From: Escherichia phage vB_EcoM_G10400 | Sequence record: MK327937.1 | Length of the DNA stretch: 64,000 nucleotides | Direction: 5' to 3' (one strand) | Shown here: positions 1,705 to 62,745 of the stretch, one piece after another | How positions within the stretch are numbered: position 1 is the first letter of the stretch | Layout of the letters: the number at the start of each line of letters is the position of its first letter | Translations under genes and position numbers: made by a program | Notes under the pieces: model-generated | The model's database searches: none | Seen by the model: only the letters and a program-made list of their open reading frames with translations | Told to the model about the DNA's origin: nothing

Positions 1705-3123
1705 TTATGGATAGGTATAGATGATACCAGTTTCTAAAGCAGTTTTATGAATGATGTATCCATTGCGTGATTCTTGAACATCAACTTCTGGATAGTCTTT
1801 CATCATCTTCTGAAGAGTGTAACGATGCAGGTAGTATTTACTGTCTGGATCTTCAGTTTTCCAATCTTTACCTTCTTCGGTCATTTTTTGGATTTCATCC
1901 ATAACCCACCAACCGCACCAGATATAAGCTGAAGTACGATGTGGAAGAGGATGAACATAAGGTAATTCACCTTCTGGCTCTGGAGCAACTTTATCAGTTA
2001 CCTGAACTTGACCTTCCGCCGTAATAGTTTTGCTATCATAATCAGTTGCAGTAACGACAGCAGTAACTTCAATAGTTTGACTTCCAATAGATGAGGTATC
2101 AACGGTATATACATTAGTTGACCCTTCTACAGGAGAAGAATCTTTCTTCCATGAATACGCAATTTGCGCTTCTTCTGGAGCATCAGTGACATTAGCAGTA
2201 AATGTAGCCGAAGCATCTTGTTGAACGTTAATAGAAGGAGGAGTCAATGTAACCTGTGGATTCATTGTCTTCTTATTAACTGTTAATGATACTTCATTCG
2301 AAGTAACTTCCTTTTCATTGTAATTTTCAGCAGTTACTTGGGCTACGCATTTAATTCTTTTTACTCCACTTGTAGTAGGAGTATAGCTAAATGTAGCGTT
2401 AGTTGCTTCACCCACAGGAGAATCATCTACATACCACTGATACGTAGCAGATGCCCCATCAGGTTGAGAAGCTAAGGCAGCAGTAAATTCAACGGCTGTT
2501 CCAATCACTCCAGCTGGAGGACTATCAGGAGTTACTGCCAAGGTAGTCGTCTGCGTCTTTTTATTAACAGTCAATGATACTTCATTAGAAGTAACGCTTA
2601 GTGCATCATAATCTGCCGCAGTTACTTGAGCTACACACTTGATTTTTTTAACTCCGCTTGTGTCAGGAGTGTAATTGAATGTAGCGTCAGTTGCTTCGTC
2701 TACAGGAGAACCGTCAACGTGCCATTGATACGTAGCGTTTGCACCTGATGGCTGTGAAGCTAAGGCAGCGGTAAATTCAATTGGAGTTCCAATCACTCCA
2801 GCATCAGGGCTACCAGGAGTTACAGCTAAAGTAGTTGTTTGTGTCTTATTTTGAACTGTGATAGTTGTACTAATTTCTGCTGTTTCAGGTTCAGATTCTG
2901 CAACTTGATTGGTTGCAACTACTTTAATAGTCTTTTGACCGGCAGGTCCTTTTAGTACATAACTAAAAGTTGCTGACGTTTCTTCCTGTGGAGCGTCGTC
3001 TACAGTCCAAGCATATGTAATAGGTCCATCTCCAGTTTGACCACTGGGTGTAGCAGTAAACTGCTGAGTCTGATCTATAACTCCAGTAGGTGTTTTAGGA
3101 GTTATATCAACTGTAAAAGCCAT
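1705..3123 (-). CDS. hoc: Highly immunogenic outer capsid protein Hoc, 472 aa, with five rather than four domains
   Basis: C-terminal capsid-binding block YIWCGWWVMDEIQKMTEEGKDWKTEDPDSKYYLHRYTLQKMMKDYPEV matches T4 Hoc; N-terminal Ig-like repeats; an extra ~96-aa repeat relative to the 376-aa T4 Hoc I recall. Confidence 0.9.
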   Translation of the reverse strand: MAFTVDITPKTPTGVIDQTQQFTATPSGQTGDGPITYAWTVDDAPQEETSATFSYVLKGPAGQKTIKVVATNQVAESEPETAEISTTITVQNKTQTTTLAVTPGSPDAGVIGTPIEFTAALASQPSGANATYQWHVDGSPVDEATDATFNYTPDTSGVKKIKCVAQVTAADYDALSVTSNEVSLTVNKKTQTTTLAVTPDSPPAGVIGTAVEFTAALASQPDGASATYQWYVDDSPVGEATNATFSYTPTTSGVKRIKCVAQVTAENYNEKEVTSNEVSLTVNKKTMNPQVTLTPPSINVQQDASATFTANVTDAPEEAQIAYSWKKDSSPVEGSTNVYTVDTSSIGSQTIEVTAVVTATDYDSKTITAEGQVQVTDKVAPEPEGELPYVHPLPHRTSAYIWCGWWVMDEIQKMTEEGKDWKTEDPDSKYYLHRYTLQKMMKDYPEVDVQESRNGYIIHKTALETGIIYTYP

Positions 3124-3132
3124 AAGTTATCC

Positions 3133-3813
3133 TTATTTTAATGTTACGAAAGAAGAATTACGTGTTTCACGAATTAGAACTGATCCGTCACGATTAATGT
3201 AGTAAATTAAGCTAAATAAAGTTTGGTGTGCCGACGCATGTTCAAAACTAGTTGGGTGAGATTTCCAATCTGGGGTTTCAGCAATCCATTGATAAATCCA
3301 CCAAGGAACAGTGCAGAATCCTGGATTTTTTCCAATCAGCTGAAGATTCGGACTAAAGTTTTCCGGAAGAGTAAATACAGACGGCTTTTCGGATTCAATA
3401 ATCTCAGCTACAGCCTGTTCGAATTTTTCTTCAACAAAAGGAGTATCTTCAATTAAAACAGTGGTATTTTCAGGAATTTTATCCGTTTCTACTACTTCAA
3501 TTTTAATGTCAGATTTAACCGGAGAATCAATCAGAAGTGCTGCCTCTGGATTGACTTCTTCATCGTCATATTTTAATCCGTCTGCGGCATCAGCAGCATC
3601 AATTAAGTCTTTAATAGATAACCCATCAGTCTCTGGCATAGGTTCACTAGCGAGCTTCTGGAGAGCTTCTTCAATATCATTAACGATATTATCAAAAGAT
3701 TTATTCTTTTTGACCTTTATACCAAACTGTTCAGCATATTCAGCTAATTTAGCTTTAGCTTCTTTATTATCATCAAGAGCCTTCAGCTCTGCAATATAAT
3801 CTTTATCTATCAT
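3133..3813 (-). CDS. inh: Inhibitor of prohead protease gp21 (Inh)
   Basis: 226 aa, position between hoc and segE as in T4; start ATG at 3811-3813 lies inside the duplicated 55-bp block so the true start context is ambiguous. Confidence 0.7.
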   Translation of the reverse strand: MIDKDYIAELKALDDNKEAKAKLAEYAEQFGIKVKKNKSFDNIVNDIEEALQKLASEPMPETDGLSIKDLIDAADAADGLKYDDEEVNPEAALLIDSPVKSDIKIEVVETDKIPENTTVLIEDTPFVEEKFEQAVAEIIESEKPSVFTLPENFSPNLQLIGKNPGFCTVPWWIYQWIAETPDWKSHPTSFEHASAHQTLFSLIYYINRDGSVLIRETRNSSFVTLK

Positions 3814-3835
3814 AATATTTCCTCAGTATAAATAT
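3781..3835. repeat. 55-bp direct repeat, copy 1 (flank of inserted adapter)
   Basis: Identical to 3958-4012 (cttcagctctgcaatataatctttatctatcataatatttcctcagtataaatat). Confidence 0.95.
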
Positions 3836-3901: not shown

Positions 3902-4012
<111 letters not shown>

Positions 4013-7778: not shown

Positions 7779-8404
7779 TATAGTAACTCAAAGAACTCTT
7801 TGAGGCCTCTTATTACGTGAGCATGGGTTTTTCCACACTCTGGACACTTAATTGGAACAGCCAAATAAACAGTAGGCTTTAAAAGCATATCTTTTATAGC
7901 TACAATATCTGACTCTGTGATGATAGAATATAAATCTTCCAGTTCTTTTTCATTTAAGTCTTCAACTGGAATGCTTTCCCCGTTAGCATGAATCGTTTCT
8001 ATACATGATACTATCATGTGGGCTATATTTTTATCATCAAAAATTTTAGGGTATCGGAATTTAATTTTAATGTCACCCAGTGTATACCAGAGGTCTTCTG
8101 GTGCATCTATTTGTGTATGTAATAGATTTATATGGGTTGGTATTTCAGTTCCACAGGTGCACTTCCAGGAGTTTTCGTGATTAACTTCACCGAGAGAATG
8201 TGCCCATAAATGAATCAACAATAGTTCTGATTCTTGGCGGTTTAAATCTTTTGCATTTGTGCAGTCTTTGATTAGCTTTTTAACAATTACTTCTACGGAA
8301 CCATTATTTTTGGCAGTAATAAGTTCTAGATATTCTTTAAGCGTGAATGCGCGACAATTGATTATTTTAGAACCAACTCTCACATCAAATTTGTATTCAT
8401 ACAT
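7778..8404 (-). CDS. 26: Baseplate hub protein gp26
   Basis: 208 aa; synteny and length match T4 gp26. Confidence 0.8.
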
Positions 8405-8425
8405 ATTTAGCTCCTTTATTTATCA

Positions 8426-8437
8426 TATTTATAAATA
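8426..8437. promoter_or_regulatory. Overlapping divergent late promoter cores for genes 26 and 51
   Basis: TATTTATAAATA reads TATAAATA on plus (8430-8437) and on minus (8426-8433); sits between the divergent starts at 8404 and 8455. Confidence 0.5.
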
Positions 8438-8454
8438 GAATAAAAGGAGCATCT

Positions 8455-9204
8455 ATGGCAAACATTATTCGTTGTAAATTACCAGATGGTGTTCATCGTT
8501 TTAAACCATTTACGGTAGAAGATTATCGAGATTTTTTGTTAGTTCGAAACGATATAGAACATCGGTCACCGCAAGAACAAAAAGAAATAATTACTGATTT
8601 AATTGATGATTATTTTGGAGACTATCCGAAGACTTGGCAACCATTTATATTTTTGCAGGTATTTGTAGGGTCGATAGGTAAAACTAAAGTACCGGTCACA
8701 TTTGTATGTCCAAAATGTAAAAAAGAAAAGACAGTTCCATTTGAAATATACCAAAAAGAATTAAAGGAACCTGTTTTTGATGTAGCTAATGTTAAAATTA
8801 AATTAAAGTTTCCTTCTGAGTTTTATGAAAATAAAGCAAAGATGATTACTGAAAATATTCATTCTGTCCAAGTAGATGAAATATGGTATGATTGGAAGGA
8901 AATTAGTGAATCAAGCCAAATAGAACTTGTTGATGCCATCGAGATAGAAACATTAGAAAAAATTCTCGATGCAATGAATCCTATTAATTTAACTCTACAT
9001 ATGTCATGCTGTAATAAGTACATTAAAAAATACACTGATATAGTAGATGTGTTTAAGCTATTAGTTAACCCAGATGAAATATTTACTTTTTATCAAATTA
9101 ATCACACACTCGTAAAAAGTAATTATAGCTTAAATTCAATAATGAAAATGATTCCTGCCGAGCGCGGATTCGTATTAAAACTGATTGAGAAGGATAAACA
9201 ATAA
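8455..9204 (+). CDS. 51: Baseplate hub assembly catalyst gp51
   Basis: 249 aa; synteny. Confidence 0.8.
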
Positions 9205-14722: not shown

Positions 14723-15013
14723 TTATTTACGGAATGAAATAAAAGCAGCAACTGAAGCAACTAAACTGTCTTCAATATAAACCTCAATTTTTACCGGAGC
14801 TTCTGACTCAAATTTACCTGTTACTACACCTTGGAAAATACTTTCAGTCTGTTCTGGCTTTGAAAAATTTTCAGAAGGAAAAATTCCGAACTTTTTATCT
14901 GTTCCAAAAATTTTGATAAATTCATCGTAAACTGCTTCATTAAAAGCATTATCAGCAGGAATAACTCCTTCAACTACAAGTTCTTGACCTAAAAAGCGCA
15001 AAGAAGATTTCAT
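14723..15013 (-). CDS. Hypothetical early protein downstream of alt paralogs
   Basis: 96-aa ORF; GAGGA Shine-Dalgarno and ATG at 15011-15013. Confidence 0.6.
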   Translation of the reverse strand: MKSSLRFLGQELVVEGVIPADNAFNEAVYDEFIKIFGTDKKFGIFPSENFSKPEQTESIFQGVVTGKFESEAPVKIEVYIEDSLVASVAAFISFRK

Positions 15014-15044
15014 TTTGTGTTCCTCATGTTATGTCAGTAAGACT

Positions 15045-15074
15045 ACTATAACACAACACGAGGGACTTGTAAAC
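15045..15074 (-). promoter_or_regulatory. Candidate early promoter (GTTTAC -35, 18-nt spacer, TATAGT -10)
   Basis: Minus-strand GTTTAC at 15069-15074 and TATAGT at 15045-15050; part of a ~50-bp cassette repeated at 30281-30334. Confidence 0.5.
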
Positions 15075-17131
15075 TACATTTTGAACTTTTTAGACATTCC
15101 GTTGATGTTAACCAAAGAAGCCAAGATTTGAGAAACTTCATTTTCCTCTTCTTTTGATTCTTCTACAAGGAATTGATTAAATCCAGCCATTGGACGAACT
15201 TCACCAGTTTCCATTAGATGGTCTCCATCATATACTGATTCTTCTAATTGTTCAGAAGGAGGAACGATTGTACCTTCGATTAGATACTTGTTATAAGCAG
15301 TTTCTTTCATAAAGTACGTACTTACTTTATTAATCTTCAGTAAAATTCCACGTGGTAGAATAACTTCAGCTTCTGATGGAAATCCTGATAAATGACCTGG
15401 AACGATAACTTTGATTCGCTCAGCTCCTTTAATTATCATACCCACGCTAGTTTCTGCATCTTCATTAGCATATGTAGAATGACTACCCATATGCATCAAA
15501 TCTTCTGCATCAACGGAACCTTCTCCTTCACCAGAAAATACTGCGCCGGAATCATCTAGAGCCATATAGTTTTTACCATGCTCACCGAAGATATTTGGTT
15601 TAAGCGATGTGGATACGAAGTTCTTGAAATAGAACATTTTATTTTCAATGTTATGACGCAAAGTTTTAAAGGTAACTTCTTGCCCACGGTAAAGTGTAGT
15701 TCCTGGAGGAAGAACTGATCCTTTGGCAAAGGCAGAATCTAACGTCTCGATGTGCTTAATAGCTCGTTCCATGTATTCTTCACGGGTAGAATCTGGTTTA
15801 CCCAAAAGGAACGAGTTCATTTCAACATATGAATCTGCACAATAATCTTCAATTACATCAGATTCAGCCTGAGTCAGTCCTTTTGGAGCTACTTCGGTGC
15901 TTGCGTATTCATATGCCTGGGCAGCAGATTCATTAATCAATTTATAAATGCCATTCATGACAAATTGAATAATAGCTGTCTTTTCATCTGGTGTGGTTTT
16001 AGAACCTTTAACTAAATCATTAATAATTTTCTTAATAACATCAAAGCTATTAGAAATATTAATGTCAGCAAGATCGCTTAAAATTTTATCAGTTTTATAA
16101 TCAAAGAATTCTTTATTCTTTAAATATTCTTGAGAACCTTGATATGTTATATCGCTCTGCAACTTGATAGATGGATCACGTAAACGTGCATGGGCCAATG
16201 CAATATGATTTCGGAAGCTTTCTAGTTCATAATCGTTAGATTTAAAACGAGAAGCACTTCTCATACCACCGATAGCTCCTTTGCTGAAGTTTGAACCAAT
16301 CTGGATAACGCCAGAGTTCATCGGACCTTCTGCTTTATATACCGGAACTTTAGATTCAAACTCTTGATATTTCTTGGCAGCAAAGCTATCACCCTGAAGT
16401 GAAGCATCAACAGTAGAATATTGAGCTTGTGCTGCTAATCGACGACTTATTTTAGTTTTCTGAATAACAGCTTGGTCCGTGCGCTTATCATTTTCTAAAG
16501 CAATAGAAGCAGCAACAGCGACAGCTTTAGGAACAGCATTTCCTGTTTTAACGTCTACATAAACATCACCGACCTTTGATTCAACTTTTGTGAATAACTC
16601 AGTTGAAATAGGAGGTACACCTGGAATGTCTTCTAAATTGGCATTTTTACGGTAAACCATAATATATGCATATTTCTTATCATAGTCCCAGATTTCCTTT
16701 AAAAGAACATATCGACCTGCTCCTTTAGTACGTACTAAACGGTCAGCAATAACTTGCATTTGACGAGCTGCGCCATTTGTTTTACTTTTTAGTACGCGGA
16801 ATAGGCATGCGTCGATTTTATACTGTTTCATTGTTTGAAGAGCAGTATCAAAAACGGCATTAATGACACCAATTGGATTTCCACCCAAGTTTTTAAGCTT
16901 AACTAATGATAGTTTCTCATTAACACCTATCATTACGATATGCATCATTTTATCGCCTGGCTTAACGTTTTTATTCGTATCACCACCAGAGGTGTATGTA
17001 CAAAATCTAAATCCAGGAAGCACGCTTTCTTCGCCGGCTTGAATAGCAAAAATTTGTGGTATTTTATGCTTAGGATTTAAGTTAACAACCGGCGCCGAAG
17101 CGCCGTCAAATAATTCTGTAATAAGTTCCAT
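15074..17131 (-). CDS. Alt-like ADP-ribosyltransferase paralog
   Basis: 685 aa; N-terminus MELITELFD and blocks shared with the adjacent alt; ART signature residues present (TLYRGQ, FVSTSL, EAEVILPRG). Confidence 0.75.
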   Translation of the reverse strand: MELITELFDGASAPVVNLNPKHKIPQIFAIQAGEESVLPGFRFCTYTSGGDTNKNVKPGDKMMHIVMIGVNEKLSLVKLKNLGGNPIGVINAVFDTALQTMKQYKIDACLFRVLKSKTNGAARQMQVIADRLVRTKGAGRYVLLKEIWDYDKKYAYIMVYRKNANLEDIPGVPPISTELFTKVESKVGDVYVDVKTGNAVPKAVAVAASIALENDKRTDQAVIQKTKISRRLAAQAQYSTVDASLQGDSFAAKKYQEFESKVPVYKAEGPMNSGVIQIGSNFSKGAIGGMRSASRFKSNDYELESFRNHIALAHARLRDPSIKLQSDITYQGSQEYLKNKEFFDYKTDKILSDLADINISNSFDVIKKIINDLVKGSKTTPDEKTAIIQFVMNGIYKLINESAAQAYEYASTEVAPKGLTQAESDVIEDYCADSYVEMNSFLLGKPDSTREEYMERAIKHIETLDSAFAKGSVLPPGTTLYRGQEVTFKTLRHNIENKMFYFKNFVSTSLKPNIFGEHGKNYMALDDSGAVFSGEGEGSVDAEDLMHMGSHSTYANEDAETSVGMIIKGAERIKVIVPGHLSGFPSEAEVILPRGILLKINKVSTYFMKETAYNKYLIEGTIVPPSEQLEESVYDGDHLMETGEVRPMAGFNQFLVEESKEEENEVSQILASLVNINGMSKKFKM

Positions 17132-17134
17132 GAT

Positions 17135-19189
17135 TTATCCTTGAACGAACTTGTAAGGCATGTTTGCAATATCTATACAAGACGCAATAATTCCAAGAGA
17201 TGATTCTACTTTCTGTTTAACATTTGATGAAACAAATGATGCAAAGTCAACTCTGTCTTCTACTTCAATATCACCTGTCATTGTAACTACTTCGCCGGTT
17301 TCCATTAGACGGTCACCGTCATAAATTACCGATTCGGTGAGTTCTTCTGTGGTCATAACTTCAGCTTGAATAAGCTTGTTGTTAGTTTTAACTGTTCCAT
17401 CATTGTAAGATGCATCGGTTATTTTATTAACTTTGACCATTAATCCACGTGGCAAAATGACTTCCATTTCATTTGAAGGTGCTAAACTTCCACCTGGTAA
17501 AACAACATTGACTTTATCAGCCCCAGTAATAACCCATCCAATTCCAACTAAATTATCGCTAGAATTTACTAGTCCTTCATCAGTTTTATCAATAGAAACA
17601 CTTAAACGCTTTTCGTCTGGTAAAACACCCACAGATGAATCAGTCATCCAGGTACCAAAAATATTTGGATATAATGATGTTGACACAAAGTTTCTAAAAT
17701 AAAAAACTCGATTTTTTACCATTGCTTCATATATTGAAGGTAACATTCGTTGTGAACGATACAAAGTAATACCTTTTGGTAATCGTTCACCATTTTTAAA
17801 GGCTGAATCTAAATTATCAATAGCTTTTTCTATGTCAGATGCTGTCAAAATACTTGTACGCTCATCTGGATTATATAATCCCAAAAGAGCATTATTTATA
17901 TCTACATATCCTGAACCTACGTATTCACGAATTCCGCGTTTTTGCGCCGGTGTGTATTTAGATGAATCTTTATTTTCGACTATAGGATGTAATGACCATC
18001 CAGCGGTAAGAGCATATCCACGTAATTCTCTTCGAATAATCTTTGTTTTTATTGCATTCCAAGAATTTTGTACTAACTCATTTGCAGCATCTTGGTTTAA
18101 ATGCGAATGTTTGTTAATATTTCTTTCAAACCAAGCACCTTTATATTTTTCTAAGGTATCATCGACGATAGAAGCAATAGTTTCTAAAGTTTTTATTGAA
18201 GTAATAGATTCTTTTTTTAATTTTTCTAAAGCTTTATTTTTTATTTCTGCATTAATAATGGATTCTTTATCTTCAGGAATTATAGAAGCTTCTCTGAATG
18301 CCATCCCAGCTGTAACACTGCTAAGAGCATTCTCTAGTGCAAATCCTGAAGTAGAAATTACCGTTAATTCATTAGAATCAGAAATTAAAGGCGCGTCCGC
18401 TGGTTTATTTAATTCTGCCGCTGAAGCCTCAAATTTTTGAAACATCGGTGTTTCAAATCTAGAAGATTCCAATGACTGACTTTGTGCAATTGCTCTACGG
18501 GAAATTTTAACTTTAACGATTACAGCTTGGTCAGAACGTTTATCATTTTCTTGTGCAATAGATGCTGCAATTGCCTCATTTTTAGTTACTTGAGCTCCAG
18601 TATCTTTATTGATATAAACATCACCGACCTTCGATTCAACTTTAGTAAAGAGCTCGGTACTAATTTCTGGAACTCCTGGAATGTCTTCTAGTGATACATT
18701 TTTGCGATGTATAAGAATATATGCATACTTTTTATCATAATCCCAGAGTTCCTTAAGAAGGACGTATCTGCCACCTGAACGACTACGGATAAGTCTATCA
18801 GCAATAACTTGAATTTGTCGAGCTTGACCAGCGGTTTTAGACTTAAGAATACGAAGCATACAGGCATCAATTTTATACTGACGCATTGTTTGCATCGCAA
18901 CAGTAAAAACTGAATTGATATAATTAATTGGGCTTGGACCAAGACCTTTTAATTTAGCAATTGAACCTTTAGCAGTTAATGTAAAAGGAACAATATGCAT
19001 CATTTTATCGCCCATCTTTAAATCGCGATTAGTATCACCTCCAGATGTATAGGTACATAAACGAAAGCCTGGTTGTTCAATTGCATCATCAACATGAACT
19101 GAAAAAATTTGCGGTATTTTCTTCTTTGGATTTAAGTTTGTAATCGGAAGAGTAGTATCTTCGTCAAATAATTCTGTAATAAGTTCCAT
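17135..19189 (-). CDS. alt: ADP-ribosyltransferase Alt (packaged head protein)
   Basis: About 684 aa from second Met; sequence matches my recall of T4 Alt (MELITELFDEDTTLPITNL...); ART motifs TLYRSQ, FVSTSL, EMEVILPRG. Confidence 0.8.
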   Translation of the reverse strand: MELITELFDEDTTLPITNLNPKKKIPQIFSVHVDDAIEQPGFRLCTYTSGGDTNRDLKMGDKMMHIVPFTLTAKGSIAKLKGLGPSPINYINSVFTVAMQTMRQYKIDACMLRILKSKTAGQARQIQVIADRLIRSRSGGRYVLLKELWDYDKKYAYILIHRKNVSLEDIPGVPEISTELFTKVESKVGDVYINKDTGAQVTKNEAIAASIAQENDKRSDQAVIVKVKISRRAIAQSQSLESSRFETPMFQKFEASAAELNKPADAPLISDSNELTVISTSGFALENALSSVTAGMAFREASIIPEDKESIINAEIKNKALEKLKKESITSIKTLETIASIVDDTLEKYKGAWFERNINKHSHLNQDAANELVQNSWNAIKTKIIRRELRGYALTAGWSLHPIVENKDSSKYTPAQKRGIREYVGSGYVDINNALLGLYNPDERTSILTASDIEKAIDNLDSAFKNGERLPKGITLYRSQRMLPSIYEAMVKNRVFYFRNFVSTSLYPNIFGTWMTDSSVGVLPDEKRLSVSIDKTDEGLVNSSDNLVGIGWVITGADKVNVVLPGGSLAPSNEMEVILPRGLMVKVNKITDASYNDGTVKTNNKLIQAEVMTTEELTESVIYDGDRLMETGEVVTMTGDIEVEDRVDFASFVSSNVKQKVESSLGIIASCIDIANMPYKFVQG

Positions 19190-19241
19190 CATAGCCTCTC
19201 TAGTGTTTATTCTATTTATAAAATTAAAGGCCCGAAGGCCT

Positions 19242-23604: not shown

Positions 23605-23937
23605 TTATTTTACTACTTTCCAATGCTGCATGTCAAGTTTACCAACTTTTTTCATCTTCTCAATTAAGCGTTCTGCACGTTGGCGAGCTGTAACATAATG
23701 CCATTCGCCTAATTCATTTTGTTCAATTTTTCCAACGATTACTGTATTCAATTCATAAATCCAACCAGTAAAGAAATTATGAACTTGAATTGTAAAGGTG
23801 AAATCTGTTCCCATACCTTCTGTTGTTTCTACTTCAATAATATCACCTTCAACTGCCATTAAGAACCACATAGTTTCATCATATTTACCATTGAAGCATT
23901 TAGTTTTAACTGTAGCGTTCAGATTAATCGTTTTCAT
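23605..23937 (-). CDS. Hypothetical protein
   Basis: 110-aa ORF. Confidence 0.5.
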   Translation of the reverse strand: MKTINLNATVKTKCFNGKYDETMWFLMAVEGDIIEVETTEGMGTDFTFTIQVHNFFTGWIYELNTVIVGKIEQNELGEWHYVTARQRAERLIEKMKKVGKLDMQHWKVVK

Positions 23938-24010
23938 TTTATTCTCCTTTGTTTATGTAAGATAATACTATCACAAAGGAACTATACTGTAAACAACTTT
24001 ATGCAATCTT

Positions 24011-24042
24011 TGGAAAATAAAAAAGGACTCCCGAAGGAGTCC
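24011..24042 (-). terminator. Intrinsic terminator after small basic protein gene
   Basis: GGACTCC-CGAA-GGAGTCC hairpin (24025-24042) followed on minus strand by U-run. Confidence 0.6.
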
Positions 24043-29429: not shown

Positions 29430-29779
29430 TTAGAAAGGTCCTGGATGTCTTCTGCTAACTTGTTGAAGGAGTTGTTAATTTGTTTTTCAACCAATCCTGG
29501 CTTATGAGCCACCACATCCGCCTTCTTTGCGTCTTTGCGCAGTTTTTCATTTTCACGCTCAATAGCAGCAATTGCCTCACGATTTTTATTATTCATCGCA
29601 TCAATATAATTATACTGAATTCGCAAATTATTTAATGCTAAAGCGTTTTCATTGGCTGTTTTTGTAATTTCGGTAACTGATGTTTCTAATCTTTCTACCT
29701 TATTTTTTAAAATAATAGATGTTCCGCCAAATGCTATTACAAGTAATAGCAATCCAGCTGTAAAATTACTTACATGCAT
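29426..29779 (-). CDS. Membrane-anchored coiled-coil protein, hypothetical
   Basis: N-terminal hydrophobic helix followed by charged heptad-like region. Confidence 0.45.
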   Translation of the reverse strand: MHVSNFTAGLLLLVIAFGGTSIILKNKVERLETSVTEITKTANENALALNNLRIQYNYIDAMNNKNREAIAAIERENEKLRKDAKKADVVAHKPGLVEKQINNSFNKLAEDIQDLSK

Positions 29780-30273
29780 AAAGTTTTAATAACCTCTATA
29801 ATATCGTCTTGAGAAAGACCGTTAATTAAAATATGATGTTCAGCTGGAGATTTAGAAATTTTAAAGCATGCCTCAACATCTTCTGCCATATCCGATGCAC
29901 TACGATTTGGATTACTAATCCCAAGGCGATGTTTTCCCGTCAAAGGATTAACGATGATATAGCATTTGCAGCTATTGATATGAACATTGGGTTGAGTCTG
30001 ATTAATGAACACTTCACAATCATACTTAGCGAGTTGATTTTCTAAAAAGACTTTCATCTCTTCAACCGCATCAGGAAGCATATCACGGGCTTGCTCAAGA
30101 CGACGATTTCGATATTCTTTAATGGTCGTTTTCCGCTTGACTTGCTTAGCTAAATCTTTCTTAAGATCGGTGATATATCCAACTCGACGGTTTCCTTTAA
30201 ATACAGAAATCCCATCTGTAGTATCACCGTATGCTTCAACGACCATTTCAGTAGTAATACGCTGCAAATCCAT
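29770..30273 (-). CDS. alc: Alc, terminator of host (cytosine-DNA) transcription
   Basis: About 167 aa, directly downstream of rnlA on the same strand as in T4. Confidence 0.75.
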   Translation of the reverse strand: MDLQRITTEMVVEAYGDTTDGISVFKGNRRVGYITDLKKDLAKQVKRKTTIKEYRNRRLEQARDMLPDAVEEMKVFLENQLAKYDCEVFINQTQPNVHINSCKCYIIVNPLTGKHRLGISNPNRSASDMAEDVEACFKISKSPAEHHILINGLSQDDIIEVIKTLCM

Positions 30274-30304
30274 CATAAAGTCCTCATGTTATGCCAGTAA
30301 GACT

Positions 30305-30334
30305 ACTATAACACAACACGAGGGACTTGTAAAC
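30305..30334 (-). promoter_or_regulatory. Candidate early promoter (GTTTAC -35, 18-nt spacer, TATAGT -10) upstream of alc
   Basis: Near-identical to the element at 15045-15074; GTTTAC at 30329-30334, TATAGT at 30305-30310. Confidence 0.5.
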
Positions 30335-30337
30335 AGC

Positions 30338-31925
<1,588 letters not shown>

Positions 31926-37406: not shown

Positions 37407-38422
37407 CATTATGTTCAGATAAGGTCGTTAATCTTACCCCGGAATTATATCCAGCTGCATGTCACCATGCAGATCAGACTATATCTCCAACTTGTTAAAG
37501 CAAGTTGTCTATCGTTTCGAGTCACTTGACCCTACTCCCCAAAGGGATAGTCGTTAGGCATTTATGTAGAACCAATTCCATTTATCAGATTTTACACGAT
37601 AAGTAACTAATCCAGACGAAATTTTAAAATGTCTAGTTGCATCTGCTGCACAATCAAAAATAACCCCATCACATGAAATCTTTTTAATATTACTAGGCTT
37701 TTTACCTTTCATCTTTTCTGATATTTTAGATTTAGTTATGTCTGAATGCTTATGATTAAAGAATGAATTATTTTCACCTGAACGATTTCTGCATTTACTA
37801 CAAGTATAAGCAGAAGTTTGTATGCGAACACCGCACTTACAAAACTTATGGGTTTCTGGATTCCAACGCCCGTTTTTACTTCCGGGTTTACTGTAAAGAG
37901 CTTTCCGACCATCAGGTCCAAGTTTAAGCATCTTAGCTTTAACAGTTTCAGAACGTTTCTTAATAATTTCTTCTTTTAATGGATGCGTAGAACATGTATC
38001 ACCAAACGTTGCATCAGCAATATTGTATCCATTAATTTTAGAATTAAGCTCTTTAATCCAAAAATTTTCTCGTTCAATAATCAAATCTTTCTCATATGGA
38101 ATTTCTTCCAAAATAGAACATTCAAACACATTACCATGTTTGTTAAAAGACCTCTGAAGCTTTATAGAAGAATGGCATCCTTTTTCTAAATCTTTAAAAT
38201 GCCTCTTCCATCTCTTTTCAAAATCTTTAGCACTTCCTACATATACTTTATTGTTTAAAGTATTTTTAATCTGATAAATTCCGCTTTTCATAAATACCTC
38301 TTTAAATATAGAAGTATTTATTAAAGGGCAGTCCTACAATTTAGCACGGGATTGTCTACTAGAGAGGTTCCCCGTTTAGATAGATTACAAGTATAAGTCA
38401 CCTTATACTCAGGCCTCAATTA
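37407..38422 (-). mobile_element. td group I intron (1016 nt) carrying I-TevI
   Basis: 5' end UAAUUGAGGCCUGAGUAUAAGGUGACUUAUAC... and 3' end ...GAACAUAAUG match the T4 td intron as I recall; exon 1 ends GGU. Confidence 0.9.
37554..38291 (-). CDS. GIY-YIG homing endonuclease I-TevI
   Basis: 245 aa; MKSGIYQIKNTLNNKVYVGSAKDFEKRWKRH GIY-YIG domain; C-terminal DNA-binding region with zinc finger. Confidence 0.9.
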   Translation of the reverse strand: MKSGIYQIKNTLNNKVYVGSAKDFEKRWKRHFKDLEKGCHSSIKLQRSFNKHGNVFECSILEEIPYEKDLIIERENFWIKELNSKINGYNIADATFGDTCSTHPLKEEIIKKRSETVKAKMLKLGPDGRKALYSKPGSKNGRWNPETHKFCKCGVRIQTSAYTCSKCRNRSGENNSFFNHKHSDITKSKISEKMKGKKPSNIKKISCDGVIFDCAADATRHFKISSGLVTYRVKSDKWNWFYINA

Positions 38423-41767: not shown

Positions 41768-41810
41768 ATTATTTTCCTCTTTAATTATCAGCAGTATTGC
41801 CGATAGTTGT

Positions 41811-41840
41811 ATAGTACCATGGAAGGACAAGGATGTAAAC
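41811..41840 (-). promoter_or_regulatory. Candidate early promoter (GTTTAC, 18-nt spacer, TACTAT)
   Basis: Minus-strand GTTTAC 41835-41840, extended TG, TACTAT 41811-41816; conserved flanks shared with elements near 58500, 61640, 62150. Confidence 0.5.
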
Positions 41841-41859
41841 CGTTTTGTGAAAAATTTTT

Positions 41860-41889
41860 AAAATAAAAAAGGGGACCCTAGAGGTCCCC
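41860..41889 (-). terminator. Intrinsic terminator downstream of gene 32
   Basis: GGGGACC-CTAGA-GGTCCCC hairpin followed on minus strand by U-run. Confidence 0.6.
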
Positions 41890-58451: not shown

Positions 58452-58492
58452 TTTCTAATCTCCGTAATTCTGTATCAGTAGTTGATAGTTGT

Positions 58493-58522
58493 ATAGTACC
58501 ACAGTATGCTTTGGTTGTAAAC
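58493..58522 (-). promoter_or_regulatory. Candidate early promoter for motA (GTTTAC, 18-nt spacer, TACTAT)
   Basis: Minus-strand GTTTAC 58517-58522, TACTAT 58493-58498; motA SD GGAG and ATG follow. Confidence 0.5.
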
Positions 58523-58552
58523 CGTTTTGTGAAAAAATTTTAAAATAAAAAA

Positions 58553-58570
58553 GGAGAGCCGAGGCTCTCC
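58553..58570 (-). terminator. Intrinsic terminator downstream of gene 52 operon
   Basis: GGAGAGCC / GGCTCTCC inverted repeat followed on minus strand by U-run. Confidence 0.55.
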
Positions 58571-61501: not shown

Positions 61502-61601
61502 AGTAAACGTTTAATACATCAATCATTAAAACGATTGGGAATATACTCAAAACTATTAGTATTATAACTACATTCCATATAGCTTTAACAATCTTTTTCA
61601 T
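61488..61601 (-). CDS. Small membrane peptide (37 aa), hypothetical
   Basis: GGAGG SD then MKKIVKAIWNVVIILIVLSIFPIVLMIDVL; ORF-track longer version would include promoter. Confidence 0.45.
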   Translation of the reverse strand: MKKIVKAIWNVVIILIVLSIFPIVLMIDVLNVYFGFM

Positions 61602-61629
61602 TTTCTGTTCCTCCGTAGTTGATAGGGTA

Positions 61630-61659
61630 ATAGTACCACGGAAGAACAGTCTTGTAAAC
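61630..61659 (-). promoter_or_regulatory. Candidate early promoter (GTTTAC, 18-nt spacer, TACTAT)
   Basis: Minus-strand GTTTAC 61654-61659 and TACTAT 61630-61635. Confidence 0.45.
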
Positions 61660-62107: not shown

Positions 62108-62141
62108 TTTACTCTCCAAATCAGTATCAGTTGATAGTTGT

Positions 62142-62171
62142 ATAGTACCACGGTCCTTGTGGTATGTAAAC
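62142..62171 (-). promoter_or_regulatory. Candidate early promoter (GTTTAC, 18-nt spacer, TACTAT)
   Basis: Minus-strand GTTTAC 62166-62171 and TACTAT 62142-62147. Confidence 0.5.
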
Positions 62172-62187
62172 TGTTTTGTGAAATTTT

Positions 62188-62745
62188 TTAAATGGAAAGA
62201 TACCATCCGTTGTAGTTGCTTTTTCTTACAACCTTACGAAGGTCTTCTCTGTCACCGATGAACTTCGGAGTGTACTGGATGACACCTGGATGAATTTCTT
62301 TAGTGTTGAATATAATTATACAGTCAGCGACTTGATGATTTAGAATGGGCCCTAGATTTATTCCAGAACCGTATGGATACTCTCCGCTGCATCCTGTTGT
62401 TACAGAAATCCAACGTGAGTCAGTTTGATGTGTCTTAACTTCTACACGAAGCCCGCAGTATTTTGGATGCGCCAATACATCCCATGCATATGTGTACGGA
62501 TCATCGACATCTTCTTGGCCTTTATTGACATATCCGCTTAGCCAATCTGCCACAAAAAACTCTGCGTACACAGCGATACGGCATCTTTCGATAACTTCTG
62601 CCTTATCCTGATTTGGGTTTTGTTTTAAAGAGTATCTTGCAGTATCAGCAATTTTGACCTTCATTTCATTGGTTAAATCGCTGTTCGATAGAGTAAATGT
62701 CGGAATCTGAAATAGTCTCTGTAACCCAGGATTCGTTTTCTGCAT
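62188..62745 (-). CDS. denB: Endonuclease IV (dC-specific ssDNA endonuclease)
   Basis: 185 aa; synteny adjacent to rIIB; matches T4 denB length. Confidence 0.8.
   Translation of the reverse strand: MQKTNPGLQRLFQIPTFTLSNSDLTNEMKVKIADTARYSLKQNPNQDKAEVIERCRIAVYAEFFVADWLSGYVNKGQEDVDDPYTYAWDVLAHPKYCGLRVEVKTHQTDSRWISVTTGCSGEYPYGSGINLGPILNHQVADCIIIFNTKEIHPGVIQYTPKFIGDREDLRKVVRKSNYNGWYLSI

Follow-up and report, generated by a model that had tools for sequence, protein, structure and literature searches.

In the 64,000 nucleotides of Escherichia phage vB_EcoM_G10400 (MK327937.1) that were analyzed here, referred to below as the window, one 54-nt sequence is found twice between genes, upstream of alc and upstream of alt.-3, and in both places the spacer of an early promoter can pair with the leader and the Shine–Dalgarno (SD) sequence that follow it. 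We hold with moderate confidence that this sequence is an early-promoter cassette whose SD-hiding hairpin gates the translation of read-through RNA, and that it is ancestral at alc and was copied to alt.-3. The near-identity of the two copies, their predicted structure, the covariation of the hairpin arms and the distribution of the cassette among phages are the observations on which this reading is built. The region of interest is a Tequatrovirus (T4-like) segment, ~99% identical to phages G2133 and HP3.

Two copies of one intergenic cassette

Copy A (15021..15074, minus strand) is located between an alt-like paralog and alt.-3, and copy B (30281..30334, minus strand) between rnlA and alc; both were delimited by pairwise alignment and by repeat search, and the repeat finder lists the pair as family D7. 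The pairwise alignment gives 53 identical positions out of 54 between unrelated flanks, and the similarity drops at once beyond both limits. The sole mismatch is an A/G difference at 15034 and 30294 in the minus-strand reading, in which the two copies have the sequence GTTTACAAGTCCCTCGTGTTGTGTTATAGTAGTCTTACTG[A/G]CATAACATGAGGA. A search of the window that allowed up to three mismatches returned exactly these two copies (0 expected from 100 shuffles). When the 12 early-promoter-type units of the window are placed in the same 54-nt frame, their median identity is 25/54 and the runner-up pair reaches 36/54, which makes the pair of A and B a clear outlier; their likeness is not the product of the early-promoter consensus alone. 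The identity begins at the -35 box and ends at the SD, and the bases from the SD to the ATG are locus-specific.

The preliminary description of this DNA had reported that the two sites are nearly identical, that the similarity goes past the -35 and -10 hexamers, and that the copies lie upstream of alc and of a small alt-adjacent gene behind a promoter. All of this is borne out: the pair is an outlier between unrelated flanks, the formal alignment runs through spacer and leader to the SD, the small gene is alt.-3, and the promoter reads TTTACA, a 17-nt spacer, TGn and TATAGT, with the SD GAGGA after it.

Copy A serves alt.-3 (96 aa; 14723..15013, minus strand), which was identified by comparison with T4. 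Upstream of copy A lies an intact alt-like ADP-ribosyltransferase paralog of 685 aa (15074..17131, minus strand), whose stop codon TAG overlaps the G of GTTTAC; at the position of this paralog T4 has only the remnants alt.-1 and alt.-2. Copy B is preceded by rnlA (gene 63; 30338..31462, minus strand), with its stop codon TAA 3 nt ahead of GTTTAC, and followed by alc, the inhibitor of host transcription (29770..30276, minus strand), whose second ATG (30271-30273) is the start annotated in T4. As a separate observation, two full-length 685-aa alt paralogs stand in tandem on the minus strand (15074-17131 and 17135-19192), where T4 has one alt together with alt.-1 and alt.-2. The first ~30 nt of the two paralogs (17104-17134 and 19162-19192; repeat D16) are 97% identical, and a second N-terminal stretch (repeat D3, 158 nt) is 72% identical.

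The promoter scan places the -35 hexamer TTTACA at 15068..15073 in copy A and 30328..30333 in copy B, and the -10 hexamer TATAGT, after TGn, at 15045..15050 and 30305..30310 (all minus strand). Both sites have the TTTACA-17-TATAGT arrangement with 10 of 12 consensus matches, and from this agreement both should be active promoters. The transcription start is predicted at an A seven bases past the -10 (15038 in A, 30298 in B), which would give a leader of 22-25 nt. The SD, GAGGA, is at 15021-15025 and 30281-30285 and stands 7 nt ahead of the start codon, which at alc is the second ATG. Each copy can be read as a complete intergenic expression cassette, with a putatively strong sigma-70-type T4 early promoter, a leader and an SD.

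Predicted pairing of the spacer with the Shine–Dalgarno sequence

Folding shows why the identity does not stop at the promoter hexamers: CCUCGUGUUGUGUU, in the spacer, is complementary over 14 bp to GACAUAACAUGAGG, in the leader and SD. The 5' arm CCUCGUGUUGUGUU, made of the promoter spacer and the first base of the -10, spans 15050..15063 in copy A and 30310..30323 in copy B; the 3' arm, which includes the SD, is GACAUAACAUGAGG at 15022..15035 in copy A and GGCAUAACAUGAGG at 30282..30295 in copy B (all minus strand). The A-to-G difference in copy B lies opposite a U and changes an A-U pair to G-U. In copy B the helix also lengthens outward through AAGUCC/GGACUU to ~22 bp. The inner end of the 5' arm is where the -10 lies, and transcription is predicted to start 3 nt ahead of the 3' arm. 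The earlier suggestion that spacer and leader are conserved beyond the needs of a promoter, as an RNA-level regulatory feature would be, agrees with this pairing.

In RNA that reads through the cassette, the predicted fold has an energy of -23.3 kcal/mol for A and -27.3 kcal/mol for B (z = -3.9 and -3.6), with the SD buried, and a leader that begins after the -10 folds at only -2.5 and -6.4 kcal/mol. The calculated cost of opening the region from the SD to the AUG is 14.5 (A) and 17.6 (B) kcal/mol in read-through RNA and 4.7 (A) and 4.2 (B) kcal/mol in RNA that the cassette's own promoter starts. By this cost alc is second and alt.-3 fourth of the 81 putative gene starts in the window, for which the median is 5.0. 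As a positive control for the measure we used the start of I-TevI, a 245-aa homing endonuclease (window position 38291, minus strand), which is strongly sequestered, as published; it costs 14.9 kcal and ranks third of 81, and the measure is validated by this documented case.

Thanks to G-U pairs, the fold of the sense strand of the cassettes is better by 6-11 kcal/mol than that of the antisense strand, which points to a structure formed in RNA rather than to a cruciform in DNA.

An AUG within the 3' arm opens a mini-ORF on the minus strand, at 15011-15028 in A (5 codons, AUGAGGAACACAAAAUGA) and 30272-30288 in B (4 codons, AUGAGGACUUUAUGA), whose UGA stop overlaps the main start codon. As neither is preceded by an SD, these mini-ORFs may be coincidental.

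Upstream transcription and proposed function

One of the questions raised by such a hairpin is which RNA would contain both of its arms. A late-promoter motif, TATAAATA (19213..19220, minus strand), stands directly upstream of alt, right after a terminator-like hairpin, and is a likely source of late RNA reading through into copy A. Upstream of rnlA, the middle promoters PnrdB and PI-TevIII have been published (PMC2988021). The terminator scan found no terminator-like site on the minus strand between the upstream promoters or genes and either cassette, and because there is none between rnlA and alc, upstream RNA is expected to run on into alc. With a late promoter at alt, middle promoters above rnlA and no terminator, both cassettes are placed where upstream RNA can enter the early gene, and read-through RNA presumably covers both of them. 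A MotA-box-like motif (TGCTTC, 12 nt, TACTAT) is also seen just upstream of rnlA (window 31495-31530, minus strand); a middle promoter at this motif is absent from the published list (PMC2988021, Table 1) and is not relied on here.

The mechanism that we propose starts from upstream RNA with both arms, which for copy A would be late RNA from the alt promoter and for copy B early or middle RNA through nrdB, denA and rnlA. In such RNA the 14-22 bp hairpin would form, the SD would be buried, and alc and alt.-3 would be poorly translated. The anti-SD CCUC is carried by the 5' arm, and this arm is missing from RNA begun at the cassette's own promoter. Such RNA would start in the loop, just ahead of the 3' arm, and without the 5' arm its SD would be open. 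Alc and Alt.-3 would then be made solely from their own early transcripts, during the short period in which early promoters fire. The silencing of read-through RNA by the hairpin is what the folding models would lead us to expect. In the accessible literature that was searched, we found no mapped 5' ends, translation measurements or structure probing for either site, and no account of a hairpin in the alc leader.

The upstream stop codon is only ~10 nt ahead of the anti-SD, and a ribosome that terminates there could melt the base of the stem, which would lead to coupling and not to silencing. In this alternative, alc and alt.-3 would be translated in proportion to rnlA and alt. Coupling by the melting of a hairpin is established in RNA phages and bacterial operons, and the spacing suits it: the upstream stop overlaps GTTTAC or lies 3 nt before it, and a distance of 0-4 nt recurs in other genera. 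Yet in a 14-22 bp helix the terminating ribosome would get no further than the few outermost pairs, the anti-SD would quickly pair again, and coupling has no need of a strong promoter set to skip the 5' arm. Moreover, the known T4 cases with this anatomy (e and I-TevI) are silencers (PMC3014915). We regard coupling as rather unlikely.

Conservation within Tequatrovirus

Following the suggestion that other T-even genomes be searched for the cassette, both copies were found in essentially all of ~500 Tequatrovirus records, including T2 and T4, where they are at NC_000866 positions 136336 and 123093. All 14 pairs are kept in 15 of 17 haplotypes, and the other two lose just an end pair. The substitutions that occur preserve pairing (C-G to U-G, G-U to A-U, U-A to U-G), and in copy A of SHFML-26 a C15>U change together with G50>A makes a compensatory replacement of C-G by U-A. 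In the same phage, G16>A is common to both copies. Strict concerted evolution of the copies was considered and rejected: they differ at 5 positions in T2, 5 in JoYop and 3 in SHFML-26, and shared variants are only occasional. The records show no sign of ongoing deletion or duplication between the copies; there are ~2 copies per record, and the 15 kb between them hold essential genes.

The same architecture at alc in other genera

A loose pattern scan of viral contigs gave, among the matches listed, mostly chance promoters, and tighter scans gave 9 stretches from viral contigs and 16 from metagenome contigs. With just these 9 and 16 stretches from contigs, the comparative data come mostly from phage records.

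Outside Tequatrovirus, the rnlA-alc spacer of ~60 nt contains GTTTACA, a -10 and a hairpin with the SD as its 3' arm, and the stem sequences differ. The arms are UCUCCAUUUG/CAAAUGGAGA in Karamvirus, UCUCCGUUUAGUU/AACUAAACGGAGA in Gelderlandvirus, UCCUCGUCAG/CUGAUGAGGA in Jiaodavirus, UCCCAUUUUGU/ACAAAAUGGGG in Kanagawavirus, UCUCCUCAU/AUGAGGAGA in Dhakavirus and UCUCCAUUUGGUUG/CAACCAAAUGGAGA in Moonvirus; the 5' arm in Gualtarvirus and Biquartavirus overlaps both the -10 and the first bases of the transcript. The calculated cost of opening the alc start in read-through RNA is 10-17.6 kcal in nine of the 12 genera scored, and 0.8-4.2 kcal in transcripts from the local promoter. In the other three (Mosigvirus, Tegunavirus and Marfavirus), alc has the promoter with weak or no occlusion of the SD, from which it follows that the hairpin at alc is not obligatory.

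A plain MAFFT alignment of the alc leaders does not bring the stems of different genera into one register. A covariance model was built from the alc leaders of four genera (Karamvirus, Gelderlandvirus, Moonvirus and Kanagawavirus), with a sequence-only model of the same alignment as a control. The covariance model recovers both copies in the window, those of T2 and T4, and also the Jiaodavirus, Dhakavirus and Marfavirus alc leaders. Its gain from structure over the sequence-only model is 18-24 bits, compared with -3 to +8 bits for other early promoters. In the alignment of 19 sequences fitted by the covariance model, which hence leans to the modelled structure, 90.8% of the cells are paired, a value that falls to 40-51% on sliding the partner columns; nine of 13 pairs have changes on both sides, and none of 500 shuffles matches the observed score. 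Because of this leaning, the slid control and the contrast in bit scores are the more telling results.

Origin of the alt.-3 copy

The position of copy A appears to have a different history. In six phages of five other genera, alt.-3 has an early promoter directly after the alt stop codon, and the spacer of this promoter holds a short internal palindrome, CACAAGGAnGUG, without pairing to the SD. No occlusion of the SD at alt.-3 was found in these six phages outside Tequatrovirus, with opening costs of 4.4-7.8 kcal. With occlusion present at alc across genera and absent at alt.-3 elsewhere, SD occlusion appears to be old at alc and new at alt.-3.

A probable explanation from these comparisons is that alt.-3 received a copy of the alc cassette whose endpoints are the -35 box and the SD. 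The hairpin would be ancestral at alc, and the alt.-3 copy would have arisen in the Tequatrovirus lineage, in whose ancestor the alc cassette would have displaced the native alt.-3 promoter and leader. The exchange may have taken place between short motifs common to all such cassettes, GTTTACA on the left and ATGAGGA on the right, and an exchange between shared motifs is of the kind proposed for PeSL cassettes (PMC2839356; PMC4122927). The direction from alc to alt.-3 is suggested by parsimony alone, and the leader half of the cassette is also similar to the alt.-3 leaders of other genera, which counts against this direction.

Comparison with known systems

The -35, the 17-nt spacing, the TGn and the -10 of the cassette all match the canonical T4 early promoter (UP, -35 GTTTAC, TGn, -10; PMC2988021). 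Ordinary early promoters of the window differ from the A/B pair in having only ~46% identity in the same frame and, for the most part, no pairing to their own SD.

The closest relatives in logic are the T4 hairpins with an embedded promoter, at e (lysozyme), soc, 49, I-TevI/II/III, segB and Aeh1 mobE (PMC3014915). In these the SD and/or the AUG is sequestered in long RNA, as predicted here, and the promoter is placed so that its own transcripts lose the 5' arm and stay translatable, as they would with the start predicted for our cassettes. The difference is in the promoter, which in the known cases is late or middle and delays expression, whereas here an early -35 and -10 are embedded. Neither cassette has a late or middle internal promoter, and a motif scan found no TATAAATA and no MotA box within either of them. 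Compared with e, soc and I-TevI the logic would be reversed: expression would be confined to the early period and would not continue on later read-through RNA. Genes alc, alt.-3 and 30.8 are absent from the examples of SD-sequestering hairpins in the review (PMC3014915).

In its anatomy the cassette fits the PeSL (promoter-early stem-loop), a mobile regulatory cassette known from T4-type phages (Arbiol et al., 2010, PMC2839356; Comeau et al., 2014, PMC4122927), which has a sigma-70-type early promoter, a stem-loop that either lies between -35 and -10 or overlaps the latter, and an SD at the 3' end, and which is repeated in one genome, with movement thought to take place by recombination between shared motifs. 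Both sites have a sigma-70-type early promoter with ~17-nt spacing and a stable stem-loop in or next to it, the stem overlapping the spacer and the -10. The fit between the genes is tight (in A, TAG overlaps GTTTAC and the ATG is 7 nt after GAGGA; in B, TAA is 3 nt before GTTTAC). In the region outside the repeat, copy A is preceded by the A-rich coding sequence AAAAAGTTCAAAATGTAG, and the sequence upstream of B is not clearly AT-rich. Against the PST/T4 promoter consensus TTTACW-N17-TAYWAT given in the PeSL papers, the -35 and the 17-nt spacing fit and the -10 TATAGT is off at one position. There are also differences from PeSL. Copies A and B are far more alike (53/54) than is general for PeSL, and they are 15 kb apart around essential genes instead of flanking a small variable ORF. 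In the text of the PeSL papers the stem-loop is read as a terminator or attenuator and pairing with the SD is not described; here the 3' arm is the SD and there is no U-run.

This comparison brings up an alternative in which the stem-loop works on transcription or RNA processing, as an attenuator, a terminator, an RNase III site or a stability element, and the involvement of the SD is incidental. The PeSL stem-loops of RB49 and phi1 lowered lacZ in a transcriptional fusion like a strong terminator (PMC2839356), and the ~22 bp of copy B come near the length of an RNase III substrate. An intrinsic (Rho-independent) terminator was nevertheless rejected for both sites: no U-run follows the stem, and neither site is among the 13 terminator-like sites that the scan lists between 14000 and 33900. 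A further point against this explanation comes from the comparison of genera: in nine of them the SD always forms the 3' arm and changes of the SD are matched in the anti-SD (CCUC/GAGG, UCUCC/GGAGA, CCCC/GGGG), as neither termination nor processing would need. An effect on transcription or processing instead of translation is, in our judgment, unlikely.

Another hypothesis is that the near-identity is merely the footprint of a recent recombination or gene conversion and that the alt.-3 copy is just a promoter. Short homologies serve for recombination in T4, exchange at PeSL cassettes is documented (PMC2839356; PMC4122927), and the identity ends exactly at motifs common to all such cassettes. 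Against a mere recent footprint stand the presence of both copies in essentially all Tequatrovirus records and the way in which they have diverged: between them there are 5 differences in T2 and 3 in SHFML-26, every substitution leaves the pairing intact, and one of these substitutions is compensatory at alt.-3. We find this hypothesis improbable. The earlier idea of a recombination hotspot finds support only as an origin, in a past copy event of the PeSL type that is indicated by the endpoints at the -35 and the SD and by the lack of such a cassette at alt.-3 in the other genera examined; no evidence of ongoing rearrangement between the copies was found.

Finally, it is highly improbable that the leader is the target of a trans-acting factor, be it the RegB endonuclease or a translational repressor such as RegA: two genes do indeed have an identical leader and SD, and RegB sites do occur in the SD regions of early mRNAs (PMC3014915), but GGAG or GGAU is found in neither copy, the sequence varies across genera with the pairing kept, which suits a cis structure and not a sequence-specific protein site, and the bases from the SD to the AUG differ between A and B. 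RegB cleaves translation initiation regions at GGAG or GGAU, with GGAGRAYARAA as the ideal site (PMC3014915). Copy A reads AUGAGGAAC and copy B AUGAGGACU, with GAGGAA or GAGGAC at the place concerned, and the RegB-type site of the preliminary description is ruled out. From its broader notion of a shared regulatory RNA site, the RNA-level feature is retained and the shared binding or cleavage site is replaced by an intramolecular hairpin that covaries in other genera. A search of the whole window against Rfam at the gathering score gave no matches; at copy A there is only a chance-level miRNA match (E = 0.23).

Implications for early gene expression

The cassette is a variant of a known phage device, and an extension of T4 biology rather than a new principle. 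New with respect to the literature that could be read are the early-promoter version, the conservation at alc across genera and the near-identical copy at alt.-3.

We suggest, tentatively, that T-even phages possess a portable "early-only" translational gate, in which the spacer of an early promoter is the anti-SD of its own leader and protein is made only while the promoter fires, however long middle or late promoters upstream keep transcribing the gene. Four gate-like units with three unrelated stem sequences are present in the window (alc, alt.-3, 30.8 and the ORF of the ndd.x region), and the alc unit is found in at least nine genera. If the suggestion is true, copying from alc to alt.-3 would have transplanted a whole regulatory logic as one 54-bp module. 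The PeSL stem-loops would also gain a translational role that was not described before, and part of them would have to be reinterpreted as translational and not transcriptional elements. The shut-off of T4 early expression, which is still incompletely explained, would have an extra post-transcriptional layer. Alc stops transcription of cytosine-containing DNA, and a working gate would explain how T4-type phages limit its synthesis to the earliest minutes of an infection. It would also mean, for annotation and for phage engineering, that abundant late RNA over alc and alt.-3 need not be accompanied by protein synthesis.

Other units and repeats in the window

The SD is occluded solely in read-through RNA in four of 11 early-promoter units, namely those of alc, alt.-3, gene 30.8 and a 37-aa ORF in the ndd.x region. 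The last two have the same architecture with unrelated sequence. Upstream of 30.8 (23935..23994, minus strand) the spacer UUCCUUUGU pairs with ACAAAGGAG, and the predicted opening cost falls from 13.1 kcal in read-through RNA to 0.4 kcal in the unit's own transcript; upstream of the 37-aa ORF (61599..61659, minus strand) CUGUUCUUCCGU pairs with ACGGAGGAACAG, and the cost falls from 18.1 to 1.5 kcal.

At four other early promoters (window 23602, 27013, 40863 and 45140, all minus strand) an inverted repeat brackets the -10 and ends before the SD, for example GGTACAGG...CCTGTACC and AGGCTAT...ATAGCCT. These repeats match the positions reported for the PeSL stem-loops of RB49 and phi1. In the Mosigvirus phages phiEC1 (L003, 1501-1561) and ST0 (L004, 1483-1543) a related cassette, GTTTACAAC...TATAGTAGTCCTACTGAAACATGAGGAACACAAAATG, stands before an ORF of 66 aa that is located between ndd and the genes on the denB side. 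It has the -10, the loop and the leader in common with copy A, but the SD is not involved in its hairpin, CAGUAGGA/UCCUACUG, which brackets the -10.

The early promoters of the family of repeat D2 (41802-41881, 58484-58563, 62133-62212 and 23956-24035) are alike in the UP region, in -35 and -10 and in the bases transcribed first, with up to 84% identity over 80 nt, and do not share the spacer, which is the opposite of the alc/alt.-3 pair.

A palindrome at window 8404-8455, involving both strands, has back-to-back TATAAATA late-promoter motifs between two divergent genes for the baseplate, which comparison with SHFML-26 identifies as 51 and 26. The SD of either gene (AAGGAGC) pairs with GCUCCUU across the palindrome; the predicted opening costs are 13.6 and 10.8 kcal, and the element looks like a late-promoter version of the same gate.

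Two further repeats were noted. A perfect 55-nt direct repeat is present at window 3781-3835 and 3958-4012, 177 nt apart; its plus strand holds TATAAATA, and its minus strand an SD and an ATG with identical first codons (MIDKDYIAELK). At window 2267-2842 there is a tandem duplication with a 288-nt unit, the copies of which are 77% identical.
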